Shown here: positions 1,875 to 17,743 of the stretch, in pieces | Layout: each line of letters opens with the position of its first letter | Numbering within the stretch: position 1 is the first letter of the stretch | DNA from: a virus | Taxonomy: Duplodnaviria > Heunggongvirae > Uroviricota > Caudoviricetes | Direction: 5' to 3' (one strand) | DNA: 42,242 bases | IMG/VR virus record: IMGVR_UViG_2657245570_000016 | Program-made: the position numbers and the translations under genes | Notes under the pieces: generated by a model | Seen by the model: the letters and a program-made list of their open reading frames with translations, nothing else | Database searches by the model: none | What the model was told of the DNA's origin: nothing

Positions 1875-2071
1875 TACTGGCTGCGACATTTTTGAATAAA
1901 AGCGTCGATATTTCGGCGCTCATAACGAACTACTTTTGCACTGAAACGAATTGGTGCCAGGATAGCCCGATGACGATGCTTAATATTCCACTCACATAGC
2001 GTTTTCTGTGTAATACCTAACTTTTGGCATACTTCATCCGGGGTGAGTAAATCGTCGGGTTTCTCGCTCAT
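1871..2071 (-). CDS. AlpA-family helix-turn-helix regulator / excisionase
   Basis: 66-aa protein with an HTH-like segment (LLTPDEVCQKLGITQKTLCEW); position directly beside int; 4-nt overlap with the upstream helicase gene. Confidence 0.65.
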   Translation of the reverse strand: MSEKPDDLLTPDEVCQKLGITQKTLCEWNIKHRHRAILAPIRFSAKVVRYERRNIDAFIQKCRSQY

Positions 2072-3462
2072 GCTATACCTCTCTTTTTCATGGCATCGAG
2101 CAGGATGTCCTGCACTGTTCGTTTTGAGTTGCGCCGCTCCATCACCATTTCATCCATAGTGTCGGCAGCAATAATGTGGTGAATAAATACCGGACGATTG
2201 TGTCCGGCCTGTATCTGCCTGGTGGGGCCGATACGTTCAATAATTTGCTGATATTGCTCCAGGTCCCACCAGTGTGAGAAAAATACCAGTATATTTCCGC
2301 CGTCCTGCATGTTCAGGCCGTGGCCCGCGCTGGCTGGGTGTGCAAAGAGAACAGGAATCTTTCCGGAATTCCAGTCGCGCAGTGTCTGTGGATCCTGGTC
2401 GAGGTGACGACCGCGAGGGAATGCTTTAAGCAAGCGTTCAAGATCGTGTTTCCAGTGATAAGCAACCAGCACAGGTGCGCCAGCTGCTTCGGTCAGTATG
2501 CTGTCCAGCGCCTGTAGTTTGGTGTCATGCAGTTCTGACCAACTTCCGGTGTCATCTGTGTATACTGCGCCGCTGGCGATTTGCAGACACTTCAGTGTCT
2601 TTGCCGCGGCGTTCGGTGCTTCGATGCCTTCGCCATTCAGCTCGAGGAACATTTCCTTTTCCATTTCACGATACTGCTGACGGGCCTTCGGTGGCATATC
2701 CACGCGGATTACGTTATGGATGGGGTCTTTGATATCGAACCAGTCGGCCGCATCCAGCGAGAGGGTTACATCGGCTAACGCTCGCTGTATTTCACCCTGT
2801 GAGTGAGCAAAAGGCTCCAGTTTGGTCCAGCTCTGCCCCGGAAACTGTATCGAGTTGAACCAGCGTGAGGTAAACGCGCCGTAAGTGCGCCCGAGACGTT
2901 GCCCCTGGTCCACAAACCACGATTGTCCCCACAAATCTACCAGGCCGTTCGGTGCTGGCGTACCGGTGAGATTTATCCAGCGCCGGACATACTTATGCGC
3001 CACTTTGCCCAGCGCCGCCGCGCGCTTACCACCACCGCGCAGCCGGAAGGATTTTAGCCGGGTGCTTTCATCTGGAATGACAGTACCGAACGGCCATCGT
3101 TCTCCCAATTCTTCAATCAGCCAGACAAGGTTATCGTAGTTGATGGTGAACACGCTTGCGTTGCTGTTCGTCAGCGCCATAGAGCGCGCTTTGGCATTAC
3201 CAATAATTGGCTGCACCTCGATATTGCGCAAATGTCCCCACTTCAGTGCTTCATCCGGCCATGTGCTGGCAGCCACGCGCAGCGGCGCGAGGACCAGTGC
3301 GGGGCATGTTTCTGCCCCTGCCATAAAGAGATCTTCCAGCGCAGTGAGCGTTGCCACGGTTTTACCCATTCCCATCCCCGCCCAGATGTTGCCGCGCAGG
3401 GTTTCGGTTTCGTGGTTGATAATGAGAACTTGGTAGGGGCGAGGTATATATTTTGGGGGCAT
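2068..3462 (-). CDS. SNF2-family ATP-dependent helicase
   Basis: Motifs in the translation: Q-motif (PYQ), Walker A GMGMGKT, DExx-like VIPDESTRLK, motif III LTGTPAPN. Confidence 0.85.
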   Translation of the reverse strand: MPPKYIPRPYQVLIINHETETLRGNIWAGMGMGKTVATLTALEDLFMAGAETCPALVLAPLRVAASTWPDEALKWGHLRNIEVQPIIGNAKARSMALTNSNASVFTINYDNLVWLIEELGERWPFGTVIPDESTRLKSFRLRGGGKRAAALGKVAHKYVRRWINLTGTPAPNGLVDLWGQSWFVDQGQRLGRTYGAFTSRWFNSIQFPGQSWTKLEPFAHSQGEIQRALADVTLSLDAADWFDIKDPIHNVIRVDMPPKARQQYREMEKEMFLELNGEGIEAPNAAAKTLKCLQIASGAVYTDDTGSWSELHDTKLQALDSILTEAAGAPVLVAYHWKHDLERLLKAFPRGRHLDQDPQTLRDWNSGKIPVLFAHPASAGHGLNMQDGGNILVFFSHWWDLEQYQQIIERIGPTRQIQAGHNRPVFIHHIIAADTMDEMVMERRNSKRTVQDILLDAMKKRGIA

Positions 3463-3524
3463 ATAATATGGCTCCTAAACAACAAAAGGCCAATTTAGAC
3501 CTTTTGTTGTTTTAAAAATGTTAT

Positions 3525-4442
3525 TTATAATAGTGCTGTTACTATTGCATCTTTAAAAATATTTTCTTCTTCATTTATTAAAGGTGATGACAGATGAATA
3601 ATTACTTCTTTTCCTGTCAATACTATTTGCTCGACTTGAAATCCTGCGTTGTGTAGTCTTTGGCGTAACTTTTCTAGTGCTGATTTTGATATACTAAATC
3701 CTTCACTCCTTATAGTATAACTGGCAACTCCATTTTTAATAATATCTACAGAGTTGTCAATTTCCTGCTGCGAGTAATTTTTCGGTGAGTCGAAAAATCT
3801 GGATTTTGTCGTTGCTGTTGCCCTAAGAGATATCAATAATGATTTGATATCTTTAATCTCAGATGCCAGATACTCAGTTTCTGATACTTCTTTCTGGTCT
3901 AGTTGTGCAACTTTGAAAGTGCCAAAATGTTTGAGGAATGTTGTGTATTCAGGATCAGTTACTGACTTTAAATATGTTTCTTTTATCTTGCTCGCAAGTC
4001 TTTCTTTGAATAAATTGATTGATTGGTATCTTAAATCCGAAGGGTACTCTAAATGTTCAATTGATGAAATGTCAAAGCTATAAGGAGTGCGCTCGTCCTT
4101 AATAATTACGGTCGGTTTGTCAAATGCGAGACGCATTCCTAATTCAAACATTACATTAGCGTTTCGAGCACTTATATCGCAAACAACTATGGGGTTTTCA
4201 TAAAGATTTTGAACAATTCGTTTTTGTATTACTGCAACATCATCATCTGAACTTACCAAATTTGCCTTGAATCCGGCATCATTTGATGCTTCACAAATAA
4301 TGTCATGAACATTTCTCCAATGTCCAGTGGGATAACCTTCTATGTCCGCAATTGGCATAATAATGCCGCATATATGAGGTGGCATATTTTTGTTGTCTTT
4401 TACATCATCTTGGTTTATTTCTTTCGTTTGTTGCTTAGCCAT
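3525..4442 (-). CDS. Hypothetical protein: N-terminal TIR-like / nucleoside 2-deoxyribosyltransferase-like domain plus C-terminal domain of unknown function (about 170 aa)
   Basis: N-terminal ICGIIMPIA...IVVCDISARNANVMFELGMRLAFDKPTVIIKD...SFDISSIEHLEY resembles the conserved core (R.xNV.FE.G ... pSD..G..Y) of TIR-like/deoxyribosyltransferase-like folds. Visibly AT-rich relative to neighbours; good AGGAG Shine-Dalgarno before the ATG at 4440-4442. Confidence 0.5.
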   Translation of the reverse strand: MAKQQTKEINQDDVKDNKNMPPHICGIIMPIADIEGYPTGHWRNVHDIICEASNDAGFKANLVSSDDDVAVIQKRIVQNLYENPIVVCDISARNANVMFELGMRLAFDKPTVIIKDERTPYSFDISSIEHLEYPSDLRYQSINLFKERLASKIKETYLKSVTDPEYTTFLKHFGTFKVAQLDQKEVSETEYLASEIKDIKSLLISLRATATTKSRFFDSPKNYSQQEIDNSVDIIKNGVASYTIRSEGFSISKSALEKLRQRLHNAGFQVEQIVLTGKEVIIHLSSPLINEEENIFKDAIVTALL

Positions 4443-4457
4443 AGCTTACACAGACTC

Positions 4458-4742
4458 CTATTGTAATTTTTTGCCTAATATACATGAAAGCTCCTTACTA
4501 TCCAGTACTACCACGGTAAAGCCCAGTTTTCGCAGACGTTCATGCTCGCGCAACTGATCAGGTCGTGGTGGTTTGCCTGGTGCTTTGCATTCGACAAAGA
4601 CGATGCGACCGCCGGGTAGCAGAACAATGCGATCTGGTACCGAGCGGAGACCGGGAGATACGAACTTAAAGGCAACCCCGCCAGCCTTTTTTACTTCAGC
4701 GACGAGGTGCTTTTCGATTAGGTTTTCACGTTCATAGGCCAT
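4458..4742 (-). CDS. VRR-NUC domain nuclease (PD-(D/E)XK fold)
   Basis: VPDRIVLLPGGRIVFVECKAPGKPPRPDQL contains the PD...E-C-K catalytic arrangement of VRR-NUC proteins; commonly found beside SNF2 helicases in phages. Confidence 0.8.
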   Translation of the reverse strand: MAYERENLIEKHLVAEVKKAGGVAFKFVSPGLRSVPDRIVLLPGGRIVFVECKAPGKPPRPDQLREHERLRKLGFTVVVLDSKELSCILGKKLQ

Positions 4743-4936
4743 TAGCTTTCGCCTTCCTGCTTTTTGCGTTTCTTCATGCAGATAGCGCAGTTCTCAGGAT
4801 GGTCATGCCATTCGTCAATCCTGATACCTGTGAACATCCATTTTCCGCATAGTGATATGGCTTCCCCCGAATTAAAGAAATGTGCTTTTTTCGACAGGGC
4901 GGGGAACCCCCAACCTTTATTATCGATATTAGACAT
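4742..4936 (-). CDS. Small putative zinc-binding phage protein
   Basis: 64 aa with C-x12-H-x-H-x5-C-x2-C spacing (LCGKW...WHDHPENCAIC) and a basic tail; its stop overlaps the VRR-NUC start (TAATG on the minus strand). Confidence 0.45.
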   Translation of the reverse strand: MSNIDNKGWGFPALSKKAHFFNSGEAISLCGKWMFTGIRIDEWHDHPENCAICMKKRKKQEGES

Positions 4937-5120
4937 CGTCCACCTCCTTACGCTTTTCGCGCATGTTCTGCATCAGACAAAAATCAAACCGACGTTCGCT
5001 TTGGCCCAGACCTGCATCGCCCGGTCGTACCCGCTGGACTGTTCAAGGCGCAAAGCCTCCCGTGCAGTCCGGTAATAAAGCGGACTGTCCCGGTATTTAA
5101 ATGACATAGGGTTTTTATTC

Positions 5121-5147
5121 CCAAATAAAAAACCCCGCAATGCAGGG
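5121..5147 (-). terminator. Rho-independent terminator-like hairpin read on the minus strand
   Basis: Minus-strand RNA would form CCCUGC-AUU-GCGGGG (6-bp stem with one G-U pair) followed by UUUUUUAUUU. It lies about 25 nt downstream of the stop of the 5172..5933 gene. Confidence 0.5.
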
Positions 5148-5171
5148 TTGTAATCAACAATAAGGGGGTAA

Positions 5172-5933
5172 TTACGAGGAAGCGTTAGCTATTTGAGCTT
5201 GTGTAAATTCGAAACCAGAATTTTGTAACCGTTGCACTAGACGAGGAACTGTTTCACGTACATGGTCGTTGAAATTCAGATACAAAATCCCGTTAGCATC
5301 AGAAGGCTGTTCTAGGTGCTGTTTCTGAAGGATTGCTACATTGCTGCGCCCTAAGGACGAAAGAAGCATACCCATCTCGAGTACAACGTTCTGTCTTGCG
5401 CGGGGTTGGATTTCTGCTTCACCGGCGCGCTTTGAGTATCCCATATCATCAGGTGTCAAAAGAACAATCCCGAAACGAGTAGCAGTTTGTCCTTGCCCAA
5501 TTTCACGTTCAAGCTCTTCAATAATGGTGAGTCCAGTCCCTCCCGTATTCTGCAAAATGAAATGGTCTGGTAATCCAAGTTTATGAAGGATTAGCTCAAG
5601 TTGTTCCTTTGCAGTATGGTCATGGCCGTGAACAATGAATATCTTTTTGGGAAGCTCAGATGGCTGTTCTACGGCTAGTGGTGTTGCCGTGGGGGGCGTT
5701 CCTAAATGGGACATTATTGCAGTTTCAACATTGGGACGTTCTTGAGGGTTCCCTTGAAACTGAATGGTCCGGGTGGTGTAAAGGTTAACAATTACGCCAT
5801 TCGTTAAACGATAGCAGTCATAAGTCTCACGCTGTTCGTGGGAAAAATTGGTGAACCCACACTCCCTCAAAAAGTCAGGAAAAGATTCTCTCGGGTATGG
5901 ATAGTTGATCGGCATTTCAGTTAGTTCCTGCAT
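5172..5933 (-). CDS. Hypothetical protein: N-terminal domain of unknown function (about 90 aa) plus C-terminal TIR-like domain (Cap12/PycTIR-type predicted nucleotide-binding fold)
   Basis: C-terminal KKIFIVHGHDH...FGIVLLTPDD...RARQNVVLEMGMLLSSLGRSNVAILQK...PSDANGILYL matches my recollection of the TIR-like consensus (FIvHG ... TPDD ... RaRqNVvfElG ... pSD..G..y). GC content looks lower than the flanking pol gene. AAAGGA Shine-Dalgarno before the ATG. Confidence 0.55.
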   Translation of the reverse strand: MQELTEMPINYPYPRESFPDFLRECGFTNFSHEQRETYDCYRLTNGVIVNLYTTRTIQFQGNPQERPNVETAIMSHLGTPPTATPLAVEQPSELPKKIFIVHGHDHTAKEQLELILHKLGLPDHFILQNTGGTGLTIIEELEREIGQGQTATRFGIVLLTPDDMGYSKRAGEAEIQPRARQNVVLEMGMLLSSLGRSNVAILQKQHLEQPSDANGILYLNFNDHVRETVPRLVQRLQNSGFEFTQAQIANASS

Positions 5934-5997
5934 AAGTATTGTTCCTTTAATTTACTCGAATTCAGCATGTCGCCATAGCTCGATAAGGTGAGTTATA

Positions 5998-8061
5998 TCA
6001 ATCTTTTTTGTAGTGGTACGCCTCAAAGCCGCCAGCGTTCAGCGGAATATCGGGTGCCCATTCGGGGTTAGTGGAGAGAAGCGCGGAAAGCGCTTTATCG
6101 TTGAAATCTTCTGTGTCTGGTGCTTCGGTGATCACCTCGTCGTGTACCGTTAGCACAATGCTGTAACCGGCACCCTCGATCAGCGGCATGTTTCTGGCTA
6201 GAACGTCGCGGGCGGCCGCCTGGGTGACGTTCTCCACCAGCTTTCCGCCGTAGGTTTTGAGTCGTTGCCATTTACGCGAATAAGAGTTAACACCCATGTA
6301 GGTGATATTCCCTTGTTCGATAACCGGAGACGGGTAGCATACAGCGCGTCCGGATGGTAGCTGTATGCGCAGCCACGCGCCATCACGTCGGATTTTAAGA
6401 TAGCCGCAATACAATGTTTTTTGCGGTGTGGCGATTGCTGTGCGGACAGTGCGCTCCAGCTCGTACCAGAAATCGCAGGTCGCCGGGTGCGCCCTGCGCC
6501 ACAGGCGCTTGAGCGAGTCACATGCGATGAATACACGCTCGGACAGGCCAAAGGTCGACTTACGCTTAACCGATTCGTCGTACCAGCTTTTTGCCTCGCG
6601 GATAACATCGCGGGGAATGTTTGGCAGTGCGGCGTTCGCCAGCTCGTCGAGATCGAGACCGTAAACCAGAGCAAAAGTGATGAAAGCCGATACACCACCT
6701 CCATAACCCAGACCGAGTTCCATGACTTTACCGATCTGACGCATGTGTTTATCAACATCATCTGGTGCAATATCGAAAGCTTTTGCATACGCCAGTTTAT
6801 ATAAGTCCGGACCCGTTCCAGCGTCATACTCTCTGAATGCATTCAGTTTCCATTCTTCTCCCGCCAGCCATGCCAGCATACGGCCTTCAATGTTTGACAA
6901 GTCACTTACCACTAGTTTTTTGCCTGTTGGCGCGATAATGCAGCCACGTAACGCTGAACTGGTTAGTTCCATGATATTGTCAAACAGCAGGTCTGCACAT
7001 CCGGCTTTCAGTGCTTCGATGCCTTCGTCTATTTGTTCCTGTTTTAGTGAAGGGCGGGGAAGGTTCTGGGGCTGGAATAGCCGTCCGGCCCAACGACCGG
7101 TACGTGACGCCCCGCAGAACTGTAGCGTACCGCGTAAGCGCCCGTCGTGGCTTACGCCTTTCATCAGTGCCTTGTATTTACTGGTGCTGGTAGTACTGGC
7201 TTGCAGGCGGATAGCCAGCAGTTCTTTCACGGCAGATGATAAATCGGGGTCGGCCATACGACGTTCCAGGGTACTGCGTTGCATGTCTGGTAGCTCCACA
7301 CCGTAGGATTCAACGATGTGCTTAATCAACGCGTCCCGTTGTGTGGCTGCCTGCACTTCGCCATCAGTCATTTCCTGTGTACGCTTTGCCAGGCGCTTTT
7401 GCTCCTGGTCTACCGCTTCGATCGCAGCGCGCGCGAGTTGCATGTCCATGCAGACGCCCCGGTCGTTGATCTGCTGATCACGATGCCAGAGCGCCAGCTC
7501 TGTCCCCTGATAATTCCACTTCGGCAGACGTTTATAGACTTCACGCATTGCTTCGATATCCAGTCCGGCGTAAGCAACAAAGCGCCGCCATTCTTCCGGA
7601 TGGGTTTTACTGGTGGCCCGACGCAGTTTGCTGTTTTTCGGACGTGGCTTACAGAACAGCTGGATCAGCGCTTTACCTTCTTTGTCCTTCGCTTTGTCTT
7701 GCGGGACGCCTAGTACTTCGCAGAGTTCCCCCAGAGACCCCGGGAGACCGTGCGCCAGCGCCTGCACCATCGTGTCGCGCCAACGTTCGACTGGCGGTGC
7801 CAGTCGCGGCATTGCATAACGCAGAACGGTGCGGTCGAAGTGAGAGTTATGGAAATAAAGCAGGGTTTCAGGGTCTGCGATTGCTTCGTATAAGCCGTGT
7901 GGAATACCACCACCGGCAGTGATATCCCACACGTTTACTGGCCCGTCGTTGATAGCCCATGCGAAAAGCATCACTTCAACGCCTTCGGCATACGCATGGG
8001 TACCGTTCGTAATAGGGATTTCGCAATAGGTTTCCAGGTCGCCCCATAGTATATTGGACAT
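5998..8061 (-). CDS. Family A (Pol I-like) DNA polymerase with N-terminal 3'-5' exonuclease domain
   Basis: 687 aa; N-terminal exonuclease motif (GDLETY) then a long polymerase region; a typical partner of DUF2800/DUF2815/VRR-NUC/SNF2 replication modules. Confidence 0.8.
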
Positions 8062-8107
8062 GTGTTTACCTAGGTTTTTATTCTATTAACTGATTAAAAG
8101 ATTAATT

Positions 8108-8737
8108 ATGCATATGATCCAATACTTGATTGACCATACAGAGCATCTGGAGAAAATAGCTGGATATATTTTTTCATGTTTGATTGTTATGGGAGTCTGG
8201 ATAAGAAAGATCATTTTTAATTATAAGTATAAAGAGCCTAAATATGTCAAGAAGTTAATTTTATATTTAATTAAGTATGAACGTTATCTGGATAAGGAGG
8301 ATAAGAAAGCCATAGAAAAAAGAATAAATGATAAAATTATTCGTGATGCGCTGAAATTGCAATCCTCTTATAACCGAAGAGATGTTATTTACATTTGCAA
8401 TAGATTAGAAAAAAGACAGTATATAAATCAGTTGATTAAGCTTCAGAATTATATAGAGAAAGATAACGGAGTGTTTTTTATTAATGTTGATTTTTCAGGT
8501 TTTTTATTTATTATTAGTCGTCTGTTTTCCTTTCTGTGTTTTGTGCTGTTTACCCTTTTTTCTATTATCTGCATTATTTCCATAGGGCAAAATGAAGGCC
8601 TTTTAAATTATCTTGTGTATATGGTTATGATAATAGTTTTAGAGACTGTTGGTTTTTGGATGTATGATACTTTCCCGTCTAAGAAAAAGATCTGTGAACT
8701 AAATAAAGAATTGAGAAAGATTAAGATTCCTGAGTGA
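8108..8737 (+). CDS. Hypothetical integral membrane protein (AT-rich moron on the opposite strand)
   Basis: Strongly AT-rich coding sequence. Predicted N-terminal transmembrane helix (IAGYIFSCLIVMGVWI), a Lys/Tyr-rich soluble middle, and two C-terminal hydrophobic helices. Convergent with the flanking early genes. Confidence 0.55.
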   Translation: MHMIQYLIDHTEHLEKIAGYIFSCLIVMGVWIRKIIFNYKYKEPKYVKKLILYLIKYERYLDKEDKKAIEKRINDKIIRDALKLQSSYNRRDVIYICNRLEKRQYINQLIKLQNYIEKDNGVFFINVDFSGFLFIISRLFSFLCFVLFTLFSIICIISIGQNEGLLNYLVYMVMIIVLETVGFWMYDTFPSKKKICELNKELRKIKIPE

Positions 8738-8755
8738 TTATACGCCTAATCAGTA

Positions 8756-8774
8756 GCCCGGTGTTTAACCGGGC
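8756..8774. terminator. Hairpin between convergent genes (possible bidirectional terminator; no clear U-tract)
   Basis: GCCCGGT-GTTTA-ACCGGGC, a perfect 7-bp stem between the 8108..8737 (+) and 8790..9338 (-) stops. Confidence 0.3.
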
Positions 8775-8789
8775 GTCTATGAAGTAGGG

Positions 8790-9338
8790 TTAAATTAGTG
8801 CTTCAGCATCAGCACCTTCGCTGATATCGTCGAAATCGTCAGCGCTTGCCACTCCGCCGCCAGCGAATGCATCGCCGTCTCGCAGGAACTGGACTCCGCC
8901 GAGTGAGGCATTAATGCGTTTACCGAAATTATTGTCCTGTGCCCAGATATCGATAACGGCGTTTACATAGCACCCTGCATAAGGACGTCCGTCAGCCTGA
9001 ATAAGTGGCGAACGATCGCGATCAAGAACAGCTGGGCGCGCTTTGTTAGCAGCATTCAGGAAGAAATTGCCGGGGAAGCCTTCATACTCTGCTTTTTCAT
9101 CACCATCATGCAGGCACAGATTGAGTTTTTTCTCCAGCTGGTTATAAATGGGCTCCCACTTCTCTCCCCATTTTTCCTTCGCTACCTGCTTCATAGCTTT
9201 ACGGATTTCTTCCAGTTGTGGGTGTTTGGGAGACATTAAAAATACTGCGGAGAAACGCGGATCGCCTTCGCCGTTTACAGTTTTAGCTTCAAACAGAGAC
9301 GGGAAGGCCAGACGAACATTGTTCAGCTTCAGTTTCAT
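8790..9338 (-). CDS. DUF2815-like phage protein (putative ssDNA-binding / replication accessory)
   Basis: N-terminus MKLKLNNVRLAFPSLFEAK and acidic C-terminal tail as I recall for DUF2815 proteins; adjacent to a DUF2800-like nuclease. Confidence 0.6.
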   Translation of the reverse strand: MKLKLNNVRLAFPSLFEAKTVNGEGDPRFSAVFLMSPKHPQLEEIRKAMKQVAKEKWGEKWEPIYNQLEKKLNLCLHDGDEKAEYEGFPGNFFLNAANKARPAVLDRDRSPLIQADGRPYAGCYVNAVIDIWAQDNNFGKRINASLGGVQFLRDGDAFAGGGVASADDFDDISEGADAEALI

Positions 9339-9353
9339 GGGTATTTCCTTAAA

Positions 9354-10655
9354 TCAGATGAGGTCTGCGGTTAGCGTATCGTCGGATACGTCGTCGAAAT
9401 CATTTACAGGGTTGATATTGAGTGCGGGGCGTGGGTCTGACTCGGGAACGACGGTTGGTTTACCATCAGCTCGTGTTATCAGTGCCTCGACTTTTGACCA
9501 ACGGCGTGGACTGGCCTTTTTGATAAGTTTTTCGGCTTTTGTGGGACTAATAAGTTTAAAGTCGAATACTTCTTCAGTTTTGTACCTGAACTGGTCCTTC
9601 AGAAGTGCGCGAGCTGCCTCTTCATCACTCCAGGCCCGGTTACCTTGTTTTCCTGTTACCAGTTTAAACCCCGGTACCGGATGTCCGGCATTGAGTTCAT
9701 TGTGAACCCGGTCCCGTACTGCCTTTAGCCAGGACTCAATAAAGTCGGCCTGGCTATAGATCTCCGCAAGCTGCTCAATGGTTAACAGAGGTACACGTGC
9801 GCTGGCATTGGTGATTATTTCGCTGACAGGCTTTGTCAGATCTTCAAAGTCGCTGGCCGCTGTTTGTAAATGCTGCATTTTCTGGGCAGTGCAAATAGCT
9901 TTTGCTTTACAGAAGCGGCACTGCTTTTCTCCAGGTATGAAGTTTTCCAGCGGTAGTGTCTCAATGCCTTCGCATTCAGCAATATTGAGAACAAGGATCG
10001 CACTGGTTGCGGCCTCCTGTGCTCGTTTACCGAAAGACTGAAGTTCCTGCACGGTTAACGACCATTCTGAAACGTGGTTGAGCCTTGGCTGGTGAATAAA
10101 TAATCTTACAGTCTCAAAGTCATACAGCATGCTGAATTGTTCGAGAGCACCCAGAGCATACAGTTGTAGTTGCTCATTTTGTTCTGCATCAATGCGGACG
10201 CCTTTGCCATATTTCAGGTCGTGGATTTGTAATTCGCTACCAGCGATGATTATGCCGTCGGCAGTTCCGAAAGATTCTTCCACACCCGTTATATGTGAGA
10301 AATCAACACGTTGTTCAACCAATAGTTCATTATTCTGTGCAAGAGTCCAGACCGTATCAACATACCGGCCAACGGCTTCGACCATTTCATCATCCACCTG
10401 TGGGCCAGATGTATCATCAGGATTTTCGCGAAGGGGGTATGAGCCGAGAAACATAGAAACATTGCATCCGGCGTAGTGTTCCGGGTGGCTTTGCCTGTTT
10501 CGTAGAACTTTTTCAGCAAGCGCGTGCGCTGCAGTGCCCTCGATTGCAAAAGTTGTTTCTTTATCCGGTTGTGTGGCCTCCAGCGCCAGACTTCCTGGGC
10601 AGCGCATCCATCGATGCGCTGATGATGGAGAAAGTTGTGCATGAACGTCTGGCAT
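9354..10655 (-). CDS. DUF2800 / Cas4-like PD-(D/E)XK nuclease
   Basis: N-terminal [14 protein letters not shown] motif plus a cysteine cluster ([10 protein letters not shown]) consistent with Cas4/RecB-like nucleases. Confidence 0.65.
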
Positions 10656-10657
10656 GA

Positions 10658-11560
10658 TTAACCCTCCAGTGCTTTTTCAGCCAGGGTGATTACTTCAGCG
10701 AGATTTTCATCCGTTACTTCACCAAGTTTCCTGGCTCCCTGTTTTTCCAGAATTGCAATAGCTTCTGCCCGGTAACCCCCTTTTGCTAACTGGAGGATCA
10801 ACCCTTCAGCTTGTTTGCGTAGTGCCGCGAAATCAATTGTATGGTCATCTTTGGCGTCATTATTCTGGCTGGAATTTGCTGTGTCTCTGCGTGCAAATTC
10901 TTCCTGCAGCTGAAGGTACTCAACACGGTTGGTCTCGATATGGCCTTTTTTCAGCATCTCGTTCAACTTGCGTAAGGTGTGGAGTTCACTGGCTGCTGTG
11001 CCGGATACATTTTTGACGTAAAACGGCCCCGTGCGTTCTCCATCTTTGTTACTGGCCTTTTTCGGCTTAACTTCATCACGCCCATCCGCAGGTGCATCAA
11101 GTAGCTGCTCGGCAAAAGCACGTCGCTCGCCGATGGTTGGCAGGTCGTCCCAGAACTTAAGGATGTTACGGGACAGGTCCAGGAGAGCAGGTTTAAGCAG
11201 CGCCCTGGCTCGTTTGACGCCCTGCAATGCGCTGTCGAGAGCATCAATCTGAACTACTCGTTTATCGCCTTCAGCATCACGGTAGGCAACAGCACGTTGC
11301 AGCATGTCTTCTGTGATAGGGGTGGCTACTGGGTAGAAACCAGCCAGTGCGATAACGTCGCTGAACTCCAGATCATCCAGTGTCATTGCCGCTGACATAT
11401 TTTCAGTTTCAGTTGCTGTATCCCGACATTCCTGCACTCGTGAAATCGTGTCAGGATGCATAACAATACCTGATGCCATTGTGCGGATAAGACGTTCAAG
11501 CAGCGCATTATGTTGTGCCAGAAGTTGATTATTAAGTTCGAGACTGGTTTCTAAACTCAT
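10658..11560 (-). CDS. Hypothetical phage early protein
   Basis: 300-aa ORF in the early-left operon, 3 nt from the downstream gene; no recognisable motif. Confidence 0.5.
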
Positions 11561-11706
11561 ACTGTGGTCCTCGCTACAAGGAGAATGAAAGTGATGATCA
11601 GACCGAGCGCAGTGGCAACGGCCAGACCGGTCATCAAATCGAAGTTTTTACGGCGATAACGGAGAACATCGCGCCCCGTCAGTCGATAGAGGTGTTCAGG
11701 TTTCAT
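11557..11706 (-). CDS. Small hydrophobic protein (49 aa), first ORF of the early-left operon
   Basis: Hand translation [49 protein letters not shown]; its stop overlaps the start of the next gene (ATGA). Below the ORF-track length cutoff. Confidence 0.35.
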   Translation of the reverse strand: MKPEHLYRLTGRDVLRYRRKNFDLMTGLAVATALGLIITFILLVARTTV

Positions 11707-11761
11707 CGGTTGTATTCCTTTTTTCATATCGGGGAGCGCGCTGTTGCGAGTGCGCTTTCAG

Positions 11762-11791
11762 ACATAAAAAAGCCCGTCATTTGCGGCGGGC
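11762..11791 (-). terminator. Terminator-like hairpin in the early-left leader (minus-strand sense)
   Basis: Minus-strand RNA GCCCG-(10-nt loop)-CGGGC followed by UUUUUUAU; lies between the presumed leftward promoter region and the first early ORF. Confidence 0.4.
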
Positions 11792-11930
11792 AAAGACTAC
11801 ACACAGCAATTACATGGATATCATCGAGTGCCTGCTTTTAACCACATCAGGCGAGGTGGTTCTCCTTGTACCCCTACAGTGAGAAATCGTCTAATATCTC
11901 TTCACCCCTACAGTTTGAGAGAGATTAGAT

Positions 11931-12500
11931 ATGTCTGAAGAAAAAGGAATTCTTTCCCGGATAACTGAATCGTTATCCGGCGTGGGAGGAGCAATTAAAG
12001 GCGCGGTTGGAGCAGCAAGAGAGATTCAGAATCTGACTGTCGACTATGCAGTTAAAGAGAAGACGCACACCTTACTCGATAAGCTAATGGATGTTCAGAT
12101 GCAGCAAATGTCGCTTCAGGAGCTGCTGATTGCGGCTAAGGAGAAAATTGTTGAACTGGAAAATGAGAAAGTAAAGCAAGAGAACTGGGCCGCTGAAGCG
12201 GCGAGCTATGAACTTTACCAGCCTATGCGGGGTACTCTGGTCTATCGCAGCAAGCTTTCTGCAGATACTGACCAATCTCCGGTTTATATTTGTCCCAATT
12301 GCTACGAGCAAAAGAGAAAATCTATATTGCAAGCGGAAGGTCTGGTTATTAAGCCAGGCCTTGGGCGAGCCGTTAATATGGTTTGTTCGCACTGTAGGGC
12401 TTCCTATCTGTTCAACCGAAATGCTTTAGAGGCCAGACTGCCTGCTGAAGATGAAAATCCGGGGAAGGCAATCACGGATTACGATCCTTACAACCAGTAA
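11931..12500 (+). CDS. Hypothetical protein with N-terminal coiled-coil and C-terminal CxxC...CxxC zinc ribbon
   Basis: 189 aa; heptad-like QMQQMSLQELLIAAKEKIVELENEKVKQ region; CPNC ... CSHC pairs; own ATG; transcribed opposite to the early-left operon and convergent with cI. Confidence 0.55.
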   Translation: MSEEKGILSRITESLSGVGGAIKGAVGAAREIQNLTVDYAVKEKTHTLLDKLMDVQMQQMSLQELLIAAKEKIVELENEKVKQENWAAEAASYELYQPMRGTLVYRSKLSADTDQSPVYICPNCYEQKRKSILQAEGLVIKPGLGRAVNMVCSHCRASYLFNRNALEARLPAEDENPGKAITDYDPYNQ

Positions 12501-12807
12501 TTTCTTTAAGCATGGGTACCCTTCCGGCCACCCAGAGTTAAAGGAACTAAGCGCCCCATCGTCGGGGCGTTTCAACTTGCGTGACTTATCAGTTCGTCGC
12601 GGTGTTGTCCTCTACGCTTACCGTACGCATACGGACTCGGCGCTTACCTCGATCCCATCGGGTGCCATTTCATTTTGCCAGGAGTACTGCGGCTTACCTG
12701 TCACGCGGTTCAGTTTGTTAAAGAGCTGGTATTAAAAAACGCATTAATTATGCGGTATCGTATTTATATGCGTTATGGGATTTTGCGTCAATACGAAAAT
12801 GAATTAT

Positions 12808-12845
12808 TTTGCAAATAAGAAAACCGCCCTTGTGGAGAGCGGTTT
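12808..12845 (-). terminator. Rho-independent terminator downstream of the repressor gene (minus-strand sense)
   Basis: AAACCGC-(11-nt loop)-GCGGTTT perfect 7-bp stem; on the minus strand it is followed by CUUAUUUGCAAAAUAAUU; about 30 nt past the cI stop. Confidence 0.5.
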
Positions 12846-12875
12846 GATCAGAAGTAAGTTATCAGACTGTAAAGG

Positions 12876-13550
12876 TTAGTACATGCGTAGCGCGGATTTG
12901 GCGATCCCCGCCACGTAATGGATTTTTTCAATGTTTTCGCGTGGTACTCTGACTGGTGGATGATCTTCATTTACAGACATTAGATGGAACAGGCCATCGC
13001 GTTCGAACAAGAAGGTTTTAACCATGACCTCACCGTCCCGGGTAACCACAAGTACTTCATCACCAGGAGTGTAGTCGTGGTTGGGTTCGACGATTACGAA
13101 CTCACCCTCTTTGATTCTAGGCATCATTGAATCACCAACACATTTCAGGGCGTATGCATCTTCATCCTTTGTCGGCCAGTATATGAAACCATCACTGCTA
13201 CCTACTGAATATTGGGTGTCGCTCCAAAGTCCTCCAACGCCTAGCTGAGTGTTTCCCAAAACAGGTACTTTATTAAACCTAAGAGAAATATACGTTTTTA
13301 TACCCGTCGCGTCCTCTTTCTCCATTTCTTGAAGGCTCCTTTCTGCCAGGTCTATTGGTGACACGTGGAAGTAGTCGGCGATCTGCTTTAACGTTGCGTA
13401 TTTCGGATCTTTCACCTCTCCTGATACCAGCCTGTGTAGCGTTGGTTGGTTCAGTTGTAACCGACGTGCCAGCTCAGTTATCGAGCTTATCTTGGCTTTG
13501 TCCATCAGGTACTTGATGTTTTGAGAAAGGATATCGGTAGTATCAATCAT
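12876..13550 (-). CDS. cI: CI-like phage repressor (HTH plus S24 LexA-type peptidase domain)
   Basis: N-terminal HTH (ITELARRLQLNQPTLHRLVSGE) and C-terminal S24 motifs (GDSM serine, VMVKTF lysine); divergent from a Cro-like gene. Confidence 0.9.
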   Translation of the reverse strand: MIDTTDILSQNIKYLMDKAKISSITELARRLQLNQPTLHRLVSGEVKDPKYATLKQIADYFHVSPIDLAERSLQEMEKEDATGIKTYISLRFNKVPVLGNTQLGVGGLWSDTQYSVGSSDGFIYWPTKDEDAYALKCVGDSMMPRIKEGEFVIVEPNHDYTPGDEVLVVTRDGEVMVKTFLFERDGLFHLMSVNEDHPPVRVPRENIEKIHYVAGIAKSALRMY

Positions 13551-13691
13551 TTGGATTCATCCATGTTGTATACAGGGACGGTGATTATGCGTTATCGGAT
13601 ATTTTAATCCAGGATGATATAGAATTGCCGTATTGCTGAATAATCCGTTTTCGTATAAATTTGCGCTATAGACGAAAGTGGAGACTTAAAT
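13551..13691. promoter_or_regulatory. Immunity-region intergenic DNA (expected divergent promoters and operators)
   Basis: 141-bp AT-rich spacer between divergent cI and cro; individual operators not resolved by eye. Confidence 0.5.
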
Positions 13692-13892
13692 ATGTCCGGA
13701 CTAACACCACAAGAGATGGTCAAAAGCTTGATTGATTCAGGGTATACCCAAAACCAAATTGCCGAAATTGCAGGCGTGAAGCAGTCTTCTATTAGTCGGC
13801 TTCTCACCGGGGTTCATTCTGACCCTCGCTTTTCTACAGTACGTGCGATAGAAAAGCTTTTTCAGGAAGTGACAGCTAGACAAAAGGCGTAA
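13692..13892 (+). CDS. cro: Cro-like HTH regulator
   Basis: 66 aa with HTH (YTQNQIAEIAGVKQSSISRLLTG); divergent from cI; GGAG Shine-Dalgarno. Confidence 0.7.
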   Translation: MSGLTPQEMVKSLIDSGYTQNQIAEIAGVKQSSISRLLTGVHSDPRFSTVRAIEKLFQEVTARQKA

Positions 13893-13895
13893 CCC

Positions 13896-16157
13896 ATGTC
13901 TGATAACAAACCATGGGGAGCTACGCCCGATGAGTGGTTCCACTTCGATCTGGTGTTGGGGATGACAGACAGGCTTTTACCTGTGGTGTCCAATCCCTGT
14001 GCAGAACTGTCGCCTAATAGCAAGCTGTCTCATAATTTCGGCAAAACCCCCAGTCGCTACAATGGCCAACGTAAGGTTGTTGGTATCCCCGACTGGGCTA
14101 ACTATGTTGTTACGGAAAACGATTTTGCCCGGTGGTCGAACGAACCCGATTACGGTATTTGCGTTCGTACTGGCGACGGGGTGGTGGCTCTGGACTGCGA
14201 TATCAATGACGCCGGGATGCAGGAGATCGTACGCAATATTATCCTGTCATGCCTGGGGGAACTTCCGCCACGTCGCTGGCGGGCTGACAGTCATAAATGC
14301 CTGTACCTGATTGCTGTTGATGGCGACTACCGTAAACGTGGTCACCGCCTGGAAGGCGAAAACAAACAAATAGAGCTGCTCGCTAAGGGCCAGCAGTTTG
14401 TGGCTTGTGGTACCCATCCGGCAGGCGAACGTATTCAGTGGGACTGCGGTCTGCCCGGCGAACCTCTGAAAATTACATCTGAACAGCTCGAAAGCCTGTG
14501 GCAGCGTCTGGCGGATAACTTACCCGTGAAAGACAGCTATACCGCAGGTGCAGGACGTCAGCGTGATCTTTCCTGTGTTGATCCTTCCGCGACAGATGAT
14601 GTCGCCGACTGGCTTGACGCGAACGGGTGGACTCTGTCAGTCAGCTCTGATGGTTCCCGCAATCTGAAACCGTTTCGGGATGAGTCAGAATACAGCAACG
14701 GTTGCAGCGAAACATCCATTAAGTATTTCCCAAAAGGGACGGGGGGATTTGAACAGGGACATTTTAAAAGCATGCACAACACCGATGCGGGGCTTACTGA
14801 TGCCGACTGGCTGGAAGGCTACGGCTATACGCAATCCCTGTTCGAAGATCTCACGGTGGTTGAAGATGGCGATAAGCCTGAATTTACCGATATTAATACA
14901 GATATGACAGCTCATTTTCTGGAACGCTTTATCTACGTCATCGAGGGTGACCAGGTATGTGATCTTAGCCGACCGCCATATCAGTGCATGATGGATATGA
15001 AGTCGTTCAAAAACCTGATGGCGCCTTACCAGTTCCCGCCAGAAGGGAAAGGGCAACCAACTCCCGCAACCAAACGGTGGATAGAGCATCGGCATAAGAA
15101 GATTGCTGAGACGACAGGCTATAAGCCCGGTGCGGGACGTATTATCGAGCGTTTCGACGGGCGGTTTGAGATAAACGAATTTTATATGCCTGAGCATCCA
15201 CGTACAGCGGATACAAGTAAGGTGTCCACGTTCCTTAATCATATGGCGTATCTGGTACCTGATGCCTGGCAGCGCGAGTTTTTCATCGCCCGTCTGGGGT
15301 GGATGGTTCAGCGTCCGGAGCGTCGATGCCCGATTTCTATTCTGCATGTGGCTTCCGCACATGGTACGGGCAGAGGATGGGTCAGCCAGTTAATGGAGCG
15401 CGTGCTTGGTCCGTGGAACTGTGCTCGTACTCGCATGAAGATCCTGTGCGATAACCAGTTCCATGACTATCTGTACAATACGCTTCTATGCACCATTGAC
15501 GAGGTGCGCGAAAATGATAAGCGGTATGAGGTGAACGATAAGATCCGTGACGTGCTGACAGAACCACGGTTTGAAGTGAACCGCAAATATGGCAGCAAAA
15601 AAACGATGGATATATACACCGGCTTTCTGTTCTACACCAACCACTTTGATGCGCTGGCGCTGCCAGAGGAAGACCGACGTATCGCTGTGCTGGGGGGCCC
15701 TGACTTCGCCGCAACTGAAGAGCATTACGCCAGCCTGTACGGTGCGCTAAGCGACAGCGACTTTATCGCCCAGGTGTACTGGTATCTGATGGGCGTTGAC
15801 CTGTCTCGCTTTAACTGGCAGCGCGCCCCCGAGACGAAAGAACGCCTTCTGATGATTGAAAGCAATAAGAGCGATGTGGAGGCTGCTCTTATTGAAATCC
15901 TGGATAATCCGCCTGTGCCAGCAATGACTTATCAACAAATTGTTAACGCAATACTGGCAGAAGCAGGAATGGATGTAGAAATTAACCAGAAGCATATTAC
16001 TCGCATTTTGAAAGAAAGAACAAAGCGGGAACCCGTACGCGTAAAAATTGACGGGTTTGTATATAGGATTTGGATTCTTGTAAAAAATAACGATTTCAGC
16101 AACGAAGAATTGCGCGAAATATATAAATCTTGCGAAATTTTGCAATCTGGATTGTAA
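13896..16157 (+). CDS. Replication primase (prim-pol N-terminal domain with P4/D5-type primase-helicase-like C-terminal region)
   Basis: 753 aa directly after cro and directly before an iteron-rich origin; N-terminal acidic VALDCDINDAG-type segment; large C-terminal NTPase-like region. Assignment is by architecture and context. Confidence 0.6.
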   Translation: MSDNKPWGATPDEWFHFDLVLGMTDRLLPVVSNPCAELSPNSKLSHNFGKTPSRYNGQRKVVGIPDWANYVVTENDFARWSNEPDYGICVRTGDGVVALDCDINDAGMQEIVRNIILSCLGELPPRRWRADSHKCLYLIAVDGDYRKRGHRLEGENKQIELLAKGQQFVACGTHPAGERIQWDCGLPGEPLKITSEQLESLWQRLADNLPVKDSYTAGAGRQRDLSCVDPSATDDVADWLDANGWTLSVSSDGSRNLKPFRDESEYSNGCSETSIKYFPKGTGGFEQGHFKSMHNTDAGLTDADWLEGYGYTQSLFEDLTVVEDGDKPEFTDINTDMTAHFLERFIYVIEGDQVCDLSRPPYQCMMDMKSFKNLMAPYQFPPEGKGQPTPATKRWIEHRHKKIAETTGYKPGAGRIIERFDGRFEINEFYMPEHPRTADTSKVSTFLNHMAYLVPDAWQREFFIARLGWMVQRPERRCPISILHVASAHGTGRGWVSQLMERVLGPWNCARTRMKILCDNQFHDYLYNTLLCTIDEVRENDKRYEVNDKIRDVLTEPRFEVNRKYGSKKTMDIYTGFLFYTNHFDALALPEEDRRIAVLGGPDFAATEEHYASLYGALSDSDFIAQVYWYLMGVDLSRFNWQRAPETKERLLMIESNKSDVEAALIEILDNPPVPAMTYQQIVNAILAEAGMDVEINQKHITRILKERTKREPVRVKIDGFVYRIWILVKNNDFSNEELREIYKSCEILQSGL

Positions 16158-16159
16158 AA

Positions 16160-16424
16160 AGGTGACGGCTAGGTGACGGCAAAACGCTTAAGCGTCACCT
16201 TAAAAAGTATATATAAAACAATGGGAAATGTGCTAAAGGTGACAGGTGACGGCAGAATTTAAAACTATATACGCGATAGTGTGTATTTTAGGTATTATAC
16301 GATCGCTTATATATAGAGAACTAAAATCAACCGTCACCTGTCACCTAAAACATCTTCAGGCCTTATATGGCGCGCTTTGCAGCAGGTGACGGATATGTAA
16401 TTACGCGTCACCTAGCCGTCACCC
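16160..16424. repeat. Putative replication origin: about ten GGTGAC(R)G iterons in inverted blocks around an AT-rich centre
   Basis: GGTGACGGCTAGGTGACGGC (16161-16180) is mirrored by GCGTCACCTAGCCGTCACC (16406-16424); AGGTGACAGGTGACGG (16237-16252) is mirrored exactly by CCGTCACCTGTCACCT (16331-16346); AT-rich centre around 16200-16320. Confidence 0.6.
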
Positions 16425-16472
16425 GGAAATTAACTTGAAAAAATTAGCAAATAACTAAATGAGGATACGACG

Positions 16473-16763
16473 ATGTCAAAGATATTCCGCCAATGTATGC
16501 CTTACGGTATCCGCAAAACAGCTGAGGGGGCTTGGGAAGCATTCAACAGAGACTACCAGCCCTTAGGGGAGGCTTTTTTCTTCAAAAGAGCACTAACGCA
16601 GGCCACTCGAGATGTGTTGGCGCCACCGCCGGTAACTCAGCGCGACGACTGTGTATGGCTGTATAGCGATATCGAGCACCCGATGCACTCTGAGGCTTAC
16701 TGGAAAGCGTATTGCCAGCGGCTTAAACATCTTTCTAACCTCAAAATGAAAGATGAACGGTAA
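16473..16763 (+). CDS. Hypothetical phage protein
   Basis: 96-aa ORF with a Shine-Dalgarno (GAGGA), between the origin and the Q-like gene. Confidence 0.45.
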   Translation: MSKIFRQCMPYGIRKTAEGAWEAFNRDYQPLGEAFFFKRALTQATRDVLAPPPVTQRDDCVWLYSDIEHPMHSEAYWKAYCQRLKHLSNLKMKDER

Positions 16764-16788
16764 GTAGCAAAACGTAGAGGTCAGAGCT

Positions 16789-17211
16789 ATGCGTGATATT
16801 CGACTGGTTTTAGAGCGATGGGGGGGCTGGGCTGCGAGCGAAGGTTGCAGTGTCTACTATCCACCTGTTTCCGCTGGATTTAAGAATCTGCTACCTGCAA
16901 CGCAAGCCGGGCGGCTGAAGTGCAGTGACAATGACGGTCTGATCATCAGCTCTGCTATGAACTGCCTGAAGAAAAAAGATCCGTACCTGTGTACGCTCCT
17001 TGAGTGGCATTACATCCAGGCGATGCCTGTGAGGGCTATGGGTGTGAAGCTCGGCGTATCACACACTCAAGTTCTGAAGAGGCTCCAGGCTGCAGAGGGA
17101 TTTATCGACGGCTGCCTGGCTATGCTGGACGTGGTTCTGGAAATGGATCAAGCAGTTCAGTCAAAGCCTAAGGCTATCAGGACTTTGCGAAGGAGCTGCC
17201 CGGCGGCATAA
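16789..17211 (+). CDS. Late-gene antiterminator, Q-like
   Basis: N-terminus MRDIRLVLERWGGWAA resembles Q-family antiterminators as I recall them; positioned before a terminator and the lysis genes. Confidence 0.6.
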   Translation: MRDIRLVLERWGGWAASEGCSVYYPPVSAGFKNLLPATQAGRLKCSDNDGLIISSAMNCLKKKDPYLCTLLEWHYIQAMPVRAMGVKLGVSHTQVLKRLQAAEGFIDGCLAMLDVVLEMDQAVQSKPKAIRTLRRSCPAA

Positions 17212-17619: not shown

Positions 17620-17642
17620 GTTCGCTATGGCGAACTTTTTTT
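17620..17642 (+). terminator. Rho-independent terminator between Q and the lysis cassette (tR'-like)
   Basis: GTTCGC-TATG-GCGAAC followed by TTTTTTT. Confidence 0.65.
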
Positions 17643-17743
17643 GTATTCAGGGCCCACCGAAGGACGGCTCATAACCCAATCCTACGGGCGTATACGCAGG
17701 GCCCGCCTTTCAACAACACCCCGTAATGGCGGAGGTGGGAAGT

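Follow-up and report, generated by a model that had tools for sequence, protein, structure and literature searches.

Introduction

Synteny of the phages APSE, BPP-1, Bcep, Xfas53 and YeP4 has been stated previously (PMC8579659), and a duf2800-gp2.5-polA module is common in phages of both Gram types (PMC8093625). For APSE, a ‘second variable region around the DNA polymerase gene’ has been described (Rouil et al. 2020, PMC7313666). In the ‘Eru10’ type of non-lambdoid Stx phages, the stretch from cI to the late genes encodes only a PF09250 primase-polymerase and Q (Fagerlund et al. 2022, PMC8951638). Here, we analysed a stretch of 42,242 nt (IMG/VR record IMGVR_UViG_2657245570_000016, Caudoviricetes), hereafter called the window, with a focus on the replication genes at 5998–11560. 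This region is very likely the central part of the leftward early operon of a temperate E. coli myovirus inserted beside yfhL, with early genes of the BPP-1/APSE/YeP4 lineage and three junctions at which cargo genes are exchanged.

The backbone order shared by BPP-1, APSE-1 and YeP4 consists of primase, cro, then cI, exonuclease, Gp2.5-like single-stranded DNA-binding protein (SSB), family-A polymerase (PolA), VRR-NUC, SNF2, xis and int. In the annotations of NC_005357, NC_000935 and MK733262 this backbone is collinear with the window and includes a divergent cro–primase arm, and the same core order was found in prophages of Trabulsiella, Pectobacterium, Pluralibacter, Morganella, Serratia and Limnobaculum. 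The early genes bbp29–bbp50 of Bordetella phage BPP-1 (Rauchvirus, NC_005357) have the order and orientation of those in the window, and module 1 of the Hamiltonella phages APSE-1 to APSE-8 (Sendosyvirus) has the same backbone in the form of P53, P51, P50, P45 PolA, P44, P41, xis and int. A first, sequence-only reading of this DNA had treated lambda-type immunity combined with a self-encoded family-A polymerase as a departure from the rule. The combination is instead the standard core of BPP-1, APSE-1 and YeP4, and the same polymerase type is encoded in 1727 phage records, many of them from temperate phages such as Bacillus SPO2, the Streptococcus Javan prophages and many other streptococcal and staphylococcal prophages. 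The architecture is therefore already known: the phage itself has been deposited, and its replication module and regulation are textbook for the BPP-1/APSE lineage.

The polymerase and the core of the leftward operon

Three deposited Escherichia phages, vB_EcoM-611R5, vB_EcoM-689R2 and vB_EcoM-606R2 (accessions ON470582, ON470588 and ON470579), were 100% identical to the window; a literature search found no paper on ‘vB_EcoM-611R5’. About 25 complete E. coli chromosomes contain the same prophage, also 100% identical, beside yfhL. Of 5426 complete genomes, 178 contained relatives of the region and 159 contained the leftward operon. All sampled relatives among the complete E. coli genomes were inserted beside yfhL, which the RefSeq annotation of an identical locus places directly left of the prophage. 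The remaining part of the window carries lysis, terminase, head and contractile-tail genes as a complete module. By its gene content, the source is predicted to be a functional temperate E. coli myovirus and not a remnant.

The gene at 5998–8061 (−) encodes a 687-aa core protein that scored 53.5 bits against PF00476 (DNA_pol_A; gathering cut-off 34.3) and matched phrog_17 over its full length (1.5e-126). Polymerase motifs A (D387-LSNI-E392), B (R441/K445/Y453-G454) and C (H640-D641-E642) were found, as were the 3'-5' exonuclease motifs ExoI (D8-L-E10), ExoII (HNSHFD, at approximately residues 71–76 of the translation) and ExoIII (Y164...D168). The Pfam model for this exonuclease domain was matched only below threshold, and a PDB sequence search matched solved polymerases only across motifs A and B. 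The protein is thus predicted to be a family-A DNA polymerase in which the motifs of both the exonuclease and the polymerase are intact, and the earlier polymerase assignment was upheld by a PF00476 score above cut-off together with the catalytic motifs. Identity was 73.5% to the polymerase of Yersinia phage YeP4, 67.5% to those of Bordetella phages BPP-1, BMP-1 and BIP-1, around 64% to those of Hamiltonella phages APSE-1 to APSE-8, and 56–58% to those of Burkholderia phage BcepC6B and Xylella phage Xfas53.

The minus-strand operon runs in the order 49-aa gene, 300-aa gene, DUF2800, Gp2.5-like SSB, PolA, VRR-NUC, SNF2 and Xis. Its first open reading frame (ORF), of 49 aa (11557–11706, −), is annotated in RefSeq. 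The following conserved hypothetical gene of 300 aa (10658–11560, −; phrog_6784 at 3e-178) is a core gene and a homologue of APSE-1 P53, with 56% identity in the C-terminal domain; no Pfam match and no useful match in a PDB sequence search were obtained. BPP-1 bbp36, which occupies the same position, had no detectable similarity to it, and the analogy between the two is positional only. In the Pectobacterium odoriferum locus (L008), a 27-bp unit is repeated 16 times in tandem just ahead of the 300-aa gene homologue (6313–6906), and bbp36 of BPP-1, its positional counterpart, carries an annotated ‘variable region 2’ repeat.

The next core gene (9354–10655, −) encodes a predicted DUF2800 Cas4-like PD-(D/E)XK exonuclease (PF10926 at 1.2e-109, 367 bits; PF12705 at 7.5e-10) with the core D133...D146-x-K148 and a Cas4/AddB-type four-cysteine set (C19 and C246-x2-C249-x5-C255). 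Assignment as a CRISPR Cas4 was ruled out, the PADLOC Cas4 match being only 0.009. Downstream lies the gene for a Gp2.5-like ssDNA-binding and annealing protein (8790–9338, −; DUF2815, Enc34 ORF6 type), another core gene, which matched phrog_112 and PF10991 (7.6e-44, 149.9 bits over residues 1–175) and has an acidic C-terminal tail ending in DDFDDISEGADAEALI. Both the SSB and the exonuclease end in one acidic tail motif, [DE][DE]F[DE][DEN][IV][ST] followed by 5–7 residues and [DE].L[IV]. In BPP-1 and YeP4 the two proteins each keep the motif, and in APSE-1 it is kept in part (L032, L033 and L034). By analogy with the tail of T7 gp2.5, this suggests a shared docking site on the polymerase or the helicase.

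On the other side of PolA, the remaining core genes are a predicted VRR-NUC endonuclease (4458–4742, −), found in all relatives compared, and a predicted SNF2-family helicase (2068–3462, −). The former matched phrog_93 at 3.4e-31 and PF08774 only below threshold (18.5 bits, cut-off 23.8). The latter matched PF00176 at 8.4e-11 and phrog_62 at 6.6e-156, and is 79–93% identical in prophages of other genera. The operon ends with a gene for an Xis-like HTH_17 protein (1871–2071, −), conserved beside SNF2 in relatives; its match to PF12728 (1.1e-5) was just under the Pfam cut-off.

ORF listing and profile searches verified all the gene identities proposed from the sequence alone, namely PolA, prim-pol, SNF2, Cas4-like, DUF2815, VRR-NUC and CI/Cro/Q. 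The range of 5998–11560 given for this module holds in part. PolA, DUF2815 and DUF2800 lie inside it, as do a 209-aa ORF and the 300-aa hypothetical gene, whereas prim-pol, SNF2, VRR-NUC and CI/Cro/Q lie outside. Likewise, of the genes said to interrupt the module, the 209-aa ORF (8108–8737, +) is inside the range, but a TIR-domain gene (5172–5933) and a 305-aa gene (3525–4442) are to its left.

Exchange of cargo at three operon junctions

To compare the junctions between core genes, the core proteins were located in 24 related loci; of the 26 loci fetched, two were identical copies of the window’s prophage. Slot contents were taken from 18 annotated E. coli loci and seven loci of other genera. 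Among the 24 loci, the distance between DUF2800 and the 300-aa gene was 5–8 bp, except for a 516-bp insert in L005 and L012, and that between SSB and DUF2800 was 17–44 bp. By comparison, the distance was 93–1887 bp between SSB and PolA (slot A, 8062–8789 in the window), 218–2225 bp between PolA and VRR-NUC (slot B, with the TIR cassette at 5111–5997), and 354–2448 bp between VRR-NUC and SNF2 (slot C, 3445–4494). The smallest slot A (93 bp) was that of L012 and the smallest slot B (218 bp) that of L007.

Pairwise DNA comparison with those E. coli relatives in which the core is 95–99% identical indicated that homology stops at gene ends. Breakpoints were located at 8061/8062 and 8757/8790 for slot A, at 5110 and 5997/6010 for the TIR cassette of slot B, and at approximately 3444 and 4495 for slot C. 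Slot A contained an opposite-strand membrane protein of 209 or 199 aa, SIR2, Nmad5 with a small opposite-strand gene, Ant/AntB, or BRO-N. The commonest state of slot B was ANR with DUF4406, with TIR and ANR, TIR and BRO-N, Ant, an opposite-strand ATP-binding protein, YfbU with a hypothetical gene, a SAM methyltransferase or HNH in other loci. Slot C held the 305-aa gene, Dcm with an opposite-strand hypothetical gene, BstA-C, Rha with Arc, LAPAL with two hypothetical genes, DUF6338, a SprT-like gene, or BRO-N. The GC content was 28.7% for the 209-aa gene, 34.4% for the 305-aa gene and 45.1% for the TIR gene, relative to 54.1% for PolA and 49.2% for the prophage.

The three operon junctions are exchange points that swap unrelated cassettes by recombination at gene boundaries. 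The proposal that the early operon is a hotspot for cargo is supported by this variability of the SSB/PolA, PolA/VRR-NUC and VRR-NUC/SNF2 junctions in relatives. The counter-proposal, that the gene order is merely a standard core with no variable positions, was borne out by the synteny comparison in its first half and contradicted in its second, since the order is standard but variable positions exist. The hotspot is not new in kind, as a polymerase-side variable region has been published for APSE (PMC7313666); that region corresponds to slots A–C of the window.

The 516-bp insert at the otherwise invariant 300-aa/DUF2800 junction was located at approximately 12183–12701 in the E. coli locus L005, where it is annotated HNH/NUMOD4, and at approximately 7520–8037 in Serratia sp. 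H1w (L012), where an insert of the same length is unannotated.

Cargo proteins of the window

Slot B of the window encodes a 253-aa TIR-domain protein (5172–5933, −), which matched PF10137 at 2.9e-31 (108.4 bits, threshold 24.7) and, across residues 10–253, the PADLOC ‘phage defence candidate’ model PDC-S35 (PDLC05003; 1.2e-108). A literature search for ‘PDC-S35’ found no paper. The TIR protein had only a distant match to CBASS Cap12 and PycTIR, scoring 34.8 bits against the NCBIfam Cap12 equivalog (cut-off 450). Its role as a CBASS or Pycsar effector was rejected because of this low score and because its neighbours are PolA and an ANR remnant, with no cyclase. It is predicted to be at most a stand-alone TIR protein. 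The cassette, which includes a terminator-like hairpin (5149–5131) following the TIR gene, is absent from loci L003, L004, L020 and L022–24, where ANR comes directly after PolA.

The remainder of slot B consists of a 64-aa ORF (4742–4936, −) and a frameshifted remnant of an ANR-family regulator gene (approximately 4929–5107, −), both according to RefSeq annotation of the identical locus. ANR is intact at the same position in relatives, with or without DUF4406. In the window, the ANR frameshift is situated just downstream of the TIR cassette and its hairpin; in many relatives, ANR directly follows PolA.

Slot C contains the gene for a 305-aa deoxyribosyltransferase/TIR-like protein (3525–4442, −), which had a weak match to a PADLOC TIR-effector model (1.1e-6) and no useful match in a PDB sequence search. 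Its family comprises 4466 clusters and has no Pfam model. The N-terminal domain of about 190 aa is almost invariant, with E100 in NVMFELG fully so, and the C-terminal domain of about 100 aa is variable. PF05014 was matched by 23 of 25 family members, in all cases below threshold. The AlphaFold model (mean pLDDT 72) was matched by Foldseek to nucleoside 2'-deoxyribosyltransferase (NDT) and DNPH1, with E-values of 2e-4 to 5e-3 and target-normalized TM-scores of 0.45–0.6.

Slot A encodes a 209-aa membrane protein, taken to have three TM segments, opposite to the operon (8108–8737, +), with one N-terminal and two or three C-terminal hydrophobic segments, and a hairpin at 8757–8775. Prophages of Morganella and Serratia carry homologues of 24–25% identity in this slot and in the same orientation, and these homologues provide a link to the 199-aa alleles of E. 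coli. A word-indexed search with the 209-aa protein returned only its own 90% cluster, and an exhaustive search was needed for the remote clusters; the latter identified 10 representative clusters among 1.84 billion proteins. Members are also found beside Q in another prophage and in a TraG-bearing element. The protein is a mobile, fast-evolving membrane-protein moron. Because its gene is antisense to the PL transcript, which would be silent in the lysogen, it is plausibly expressed mainly in the lysogen.

Immunity switch and probable control of the operon

The replication module adjoins the CI/Cro/Q switch, as had been read from the sequence, and operators were found on both sides of cI. The CI repressor gene (12876–13550, −) encodes a predicted helix-turn-helix domain (PF13443) and an S24 peptidase domain (PF00717 at 2.6e-18). 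A 14-bp palindrome, ATNCG-N4-CGNAT, has five exact occurrences in the 42-kb window against an expectation of 0.89. Three of the five lie in two clusters flanking cI. The putative left operator (OL) cluster (12745–12815, −) has an exact copy at 12750 and degenerate copies at 12768 and 12795, and the putative right operator (OR) cluster between cI and cro (13585–13660) has exact copies at 13587 and 13643. The longer operator motif TATGCGKTATSGNAT was exact only in these cI-flanking clusters.

Within the left cluster, a −35 hexamer TTGACG (12791–12786), a 17-nt spacer and a −10 hexamer TATAAA (12768–12763) on the minus strand form a good candidate for a leftward sigma-70 promoter (PL) overlapped by operators. 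Four heteroimmune relatives have a different palindrome (AATTCA-N4-TGAATT) at the same two positions. That the operator has changed while the layout has been conserved is good evidence that the leftward operon is under the control of an OL/PL unit immediately downstream of cI. In a compact Limnobaculum prophage (L013), an operator-flanked TTGACA-17-TATAAA is present about 200 bp upstream of the 49-aa gene homologue and points at it. Taken together, it is probable that a CI-controlled PL drives the leftward replication operon.

To the right of cro, the heteroimmune E. coli loci L017–L019 and L021 have a VapE-domain primase/helicase in place of PrimPol-DUF5906, together with another LexA-family repressor. 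Their leftward operon is still 95–98% identical, suggesting that immunity and primase are swapped as a unit, independently of the polymerase operon. A leader upstream of the 49-aa ORF (11707–11818) is conserved, and homology with the heteroimmune relatives ends at 11818/11819.

Between PL and the operon, a further moron position (slot D) is occupied by a gene on the opposite strand (11931–12500, +) for a 189-aa coiled-coil and zinc-ribbon-like protein without a family match, which is absent from L005 and L017–19. The sequence CCCCTACAGT occurs twice ahead of this gene (11871–11916), with an inverted copy inside it (12386–12399). These repeats may be a binding site for a regulator of the 189-aa moron.

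An Rfam scan of the whole window at gathering thresholds gave no match, including to put-like and c4-like RNAs. On folding, the PL leader (12500–12760, −; z-score −0.28) and the hairpin region (11740–11830; −0.09) were no more structured than shuffled sequence, and an antitermination RNA is accordingly not claimed. The generic promoter scan, which demands T at position 6 of the −10 hexamer and so missed the candidate PL, was used only for two hairpins.

Proposed mechanism and alternative explanations

From the sequence and from knowledge of the family, the following mechanism can be proposed. In the lysogen, CI bound to operators on both sides of its own gene would shut both PL and the rightward promoter (PR) of cro, PrimPol-DUF5906 and Q. 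SOS-triggered self-cleavage of CI through its S24 domain would open both promoters, and PL would be transcribed leftward through the 49-aa and 300-aa genes, DUF2800, SSB, PolA, VRR-NUC, SNF2 and xis. PrimPol-DUF5906 would prime and unwind the DNA, PolA would synthesize it with proofreading, and the Gp2.5-like SSB and DUF2800 exonuclease would act as a recombination pair. VRR-NUC and SNF2 would process branched DNA, and xis at the end of the operon would support excision.

Several observations weigh against this scheme or limit it. The candidate PL is approximately 1.05 kb from the first operon gene, with the opposite-strand 189-aa gene in between. A weak hairpin with a T-run (11795–11765) may be a terminator, or may instead reflect an overlapping local promoter (TTGCCC-17-TTTTAT), and the replication module may own such an additional promoter. 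The hairpin after the TIR gene lies inside the operon. Searches of Pfam, PHROG and Rfam, which may miss small or novel factors, found no N-like antiterminator and no nut- or put-type RNA, and the consensus promoter and terminator scan yielded no more sites than shuffled sequence. The operon orientation of the TIR and 305-aa genes, without an obvious promoter, fits expression in the lytic phase over lysogen-expressed defence, and the sample of slot diversity comprised about 25 loci, compared with 159 genomes that carry the operon. One could also suppose that the replication operon is driven by a promoter of its own in the conserved 110-bp leader (11707–11818), with OL serving only cI autoregulation, looping or termination. 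The 1.05-kb gap with its convergent gene and the TTGCCC-17-TTTTAT candidate within the leader would fit this, as would the start of heteroimmune homology at exactly 11818, which indicates that the leader travels with the operon and not with the immunity region. However, the leader promoter is weak, with three of six matches in the −35 hexamer and four of six in the −10 hexamer, and the operator-flanked promoter of L013 is only about 200 bp from the first operon gene and aimed at it. The candidate PL of the window has the same design and orientation as the L013 promoter, and the absence of the 189-aa gene from several relatives indicates that the long gap arose from its insertion. An operon independent of PL is therefore decidedly unlikely, and control by CI through PL is retained as the probable reading.

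The role of the cargo can be read in more than one way. Tentatively, the junctions may serve the exchange of defence and counter-defence genes, and at least one cargo gene of the window would by itself constitute a new system of anti-phage defence or superinfection exclusion, with the 305-aa protein, the 209-aa protein and the PDC-S35 TIR protein as candidates. If this is true, antisense placement would confine the 209-aa protein to lysogeny via transcriptional interference from PL. The slot genes could instead be exchangeable accessory parts of a replication and nucleotide-metabolism programme, co-expressed with the polymerase in lytic growth. Deoxyribosyltransferase/TIR-fold N-glycosidases, Nmad5, DUF4406, Dcm and SAM methyltransferases would then act on nucleotide pools or phage DNA, modifying or cleansing them to counter restriction or defence. 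Such a theme of nucleotide and DNA modification is seen on the operon strand, with the TIR and NDT/DNPH1-like 305-aa genes in the window and DUF4406, Nmad5, Dcm and the SAM methyltransferase in relatives’ slots. The TIR gene is co-oriented with the operon and has no evident promoter of its own, and N-terminal-domain homologues of the 305-aa protein are present in many temperate phages of Klebsiella, Streptococcus and Staphylococcus. Against a shared metabolic programme, the slots also contain unrelated functions (membrane proteins, the regulators Ant, Rha and BRO-N, BstA-C, SIR2, YfbU and LAPAL), and some are empty or minimal, as in slot A of L012 (93 bp) and slot B of L007 (218 bp). Members of the 305-aa family moreover stand alone, without a polymerase, in a Pseudomonas island and, close to a BstA-C gene, in a cassette array of Vibrio, and the TIR protein matches the PADLOC defence-candidate model end to end. 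We regard this programme as rather unlikely. It is also conceivable that the locus is a defective prophage remnant or a satellite with decaying replication genes, given that PolA is frameshifted in L004 and split in L006, that insertion sequence (IS) elements are present in L005, L020, L026 and H27, and that ANR is frameshifted in the window itself. Every core replication ORF of the window is nevertheless intact with its catalytic motifs kept, the lysis, terminase, head and contractile-tail module is complete, and the window is identical to the genomes deposited as phages vB_EcoM-611R5, -689R2 and -606R2. A defective prophage was ruled out as a candidate on the identity to induced phage genomes and the complete virion module, and a decaying locus of either kind is extremely unlikely.

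With exchange junctions in the leftward operon of a temperate myovirus as the preferred reading, the analysis provides a map of the junctions at 8062–8789, 5111–5997 and 3445–4494 in a prophage family of about 3% of complete E. coli genomes. The slots are a compact source of candidate defence and counter-defence genes, including TIR/PDC-S35, SIR2, BstA-C, the NDT-like family and orphan membrane proteins, and the prophage family can be used to study the tolerance of cargo inside an essential operon.

Rightward arm and prophage ends

The rightward early operon (13692–17211, +) comprises Cro (13692–13892) and a PrimPol-DUF5906 primase/helicase (13896–16157), both predicted by profile search, a 96-aa ORF from the ORF listing (16473–16763), and the Q antiterminator (16789–17211; PF06530 at 8.3e-41), all on the plus strand. 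A holin of the lambda family comes after Q. The gap between Q and the holin gene (17212–17725) contains a strong terminator-like hairpin at 17617–17638, resembling a PR'-tR' unit. In L003, L004 and L006 a phiTE_015-family gene is located here, and in L005 stx2b, which makes the gap a fourth cargo position. L005, from E. coli JNEC-KY203, has the same integrase, leftward operon and TIR gene as the window and an IS1-disrupted 305-aa gene; tRNA-Arg and stxA2b are located directly downstream of its Q (18843–19890), showing that the family includes Stx2b-converting phages.

A tyrosine integrase gene is located at the left prophage end (471–1874, +; PF00589), with the RefSeq start a few codons inside the ORF. 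An exact-repeat search for attL/attR between both window ends found no repeat of at least 12 nt, leaving the att core undefined. At the right end, 38957–41674, RefSeq annotation of the identical locus places oppositely oriented tail-fibre assembly genes and a truncated recombinase; these look like the remnant of an invertible tail-fibre switch. Beyond the tail-fibre genes, a gene for a 281-aa hypothetical protein (40829–41674, −; 37.2% GC) is another likely moron.

Signs of decay were observed in some relatives. PolA is frameshifted in strain EPSSH018 (L004, 4870–6934) and split by an insertion in VL40 (L006, 6805–9640), and an IS21 element is present within the aligned early region (1900–17300) of strain 82.0312 (H27, NZ_CP122451.1). 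IS1 and IS2 insertions were found elsewhere among the relatives.

Comparison with known systems

BPP-1 differs from the window in being a podovirus, in its diversity-generating retroelement and in the adenine methylase between cro and the primase. Its slots contain other small genes (bbp41 and bbp44–46), with no TIR gene, NDT-like gene or 209-aa membrane protein. The APSE phages resemble the window in that a gene on the opposite strand, P47, separates SSB from PolA, and in having Ant with a regulator between VRR-NUC and SNF2. P47 of APSE-1 (DUF1640) had no sequence similarity to the 209-aa protein, and this analogy is positional only. APSE differs in its P22-like virion module, in a PolA that contains an intein/HNH and in the eukaryote-directed toxin cassette that follows Q.

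The duf2800-gp2.5-polA phages (Enc34, Chi, Jersey-like phages and temperate phages of Firmicutes) have the same three-gene core at only 30–41% identity; many of these are virulent, and their flanking genes and regulation are different. The cI–PrimPol–Q arm of the window fits Eru10 by published description only, the typing scheme covering the rightward arm alone, and the window is without stx.

The moron and defence hotspots of temperate phages (P2/P4, and BstA by repressor loci; PMC8585504) are likewise fixed intergenic sites at which prophages that are nearly identical otherwise exchange unrelated genes of foreign composition, often on the opposite strand, and have BstA-C, SIR2, TIR and Dcm in common with the slots described here as cargo. 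They differ in position: the P2/P4 and BstA hotspots are at prophage ends or else beside cos or the repressor, whereas the slots of the window are inside the replication operon between essential-looking genes.

The window resembles lambda in its CI with an S24 self-cleavage domain, its divergent cro and the multiple palindromic operators that flank cI, in having both a leftward and a rightward early operon, and in the placement of Q ahead of the lysis genes and of xis/int at the distal end of the leftward arm. Unlike lambda, it has no O/P, with only PrimPol-DUF5906 and the 96-aa ORF between cro and Q, and no red/gam; it has its own primase-helicase and PolA, int is convergent to xis, and N/nut were not detected. 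Judged by its gene content, this phage is lambda-like in its regulation but not lambdoid in its replication genes.

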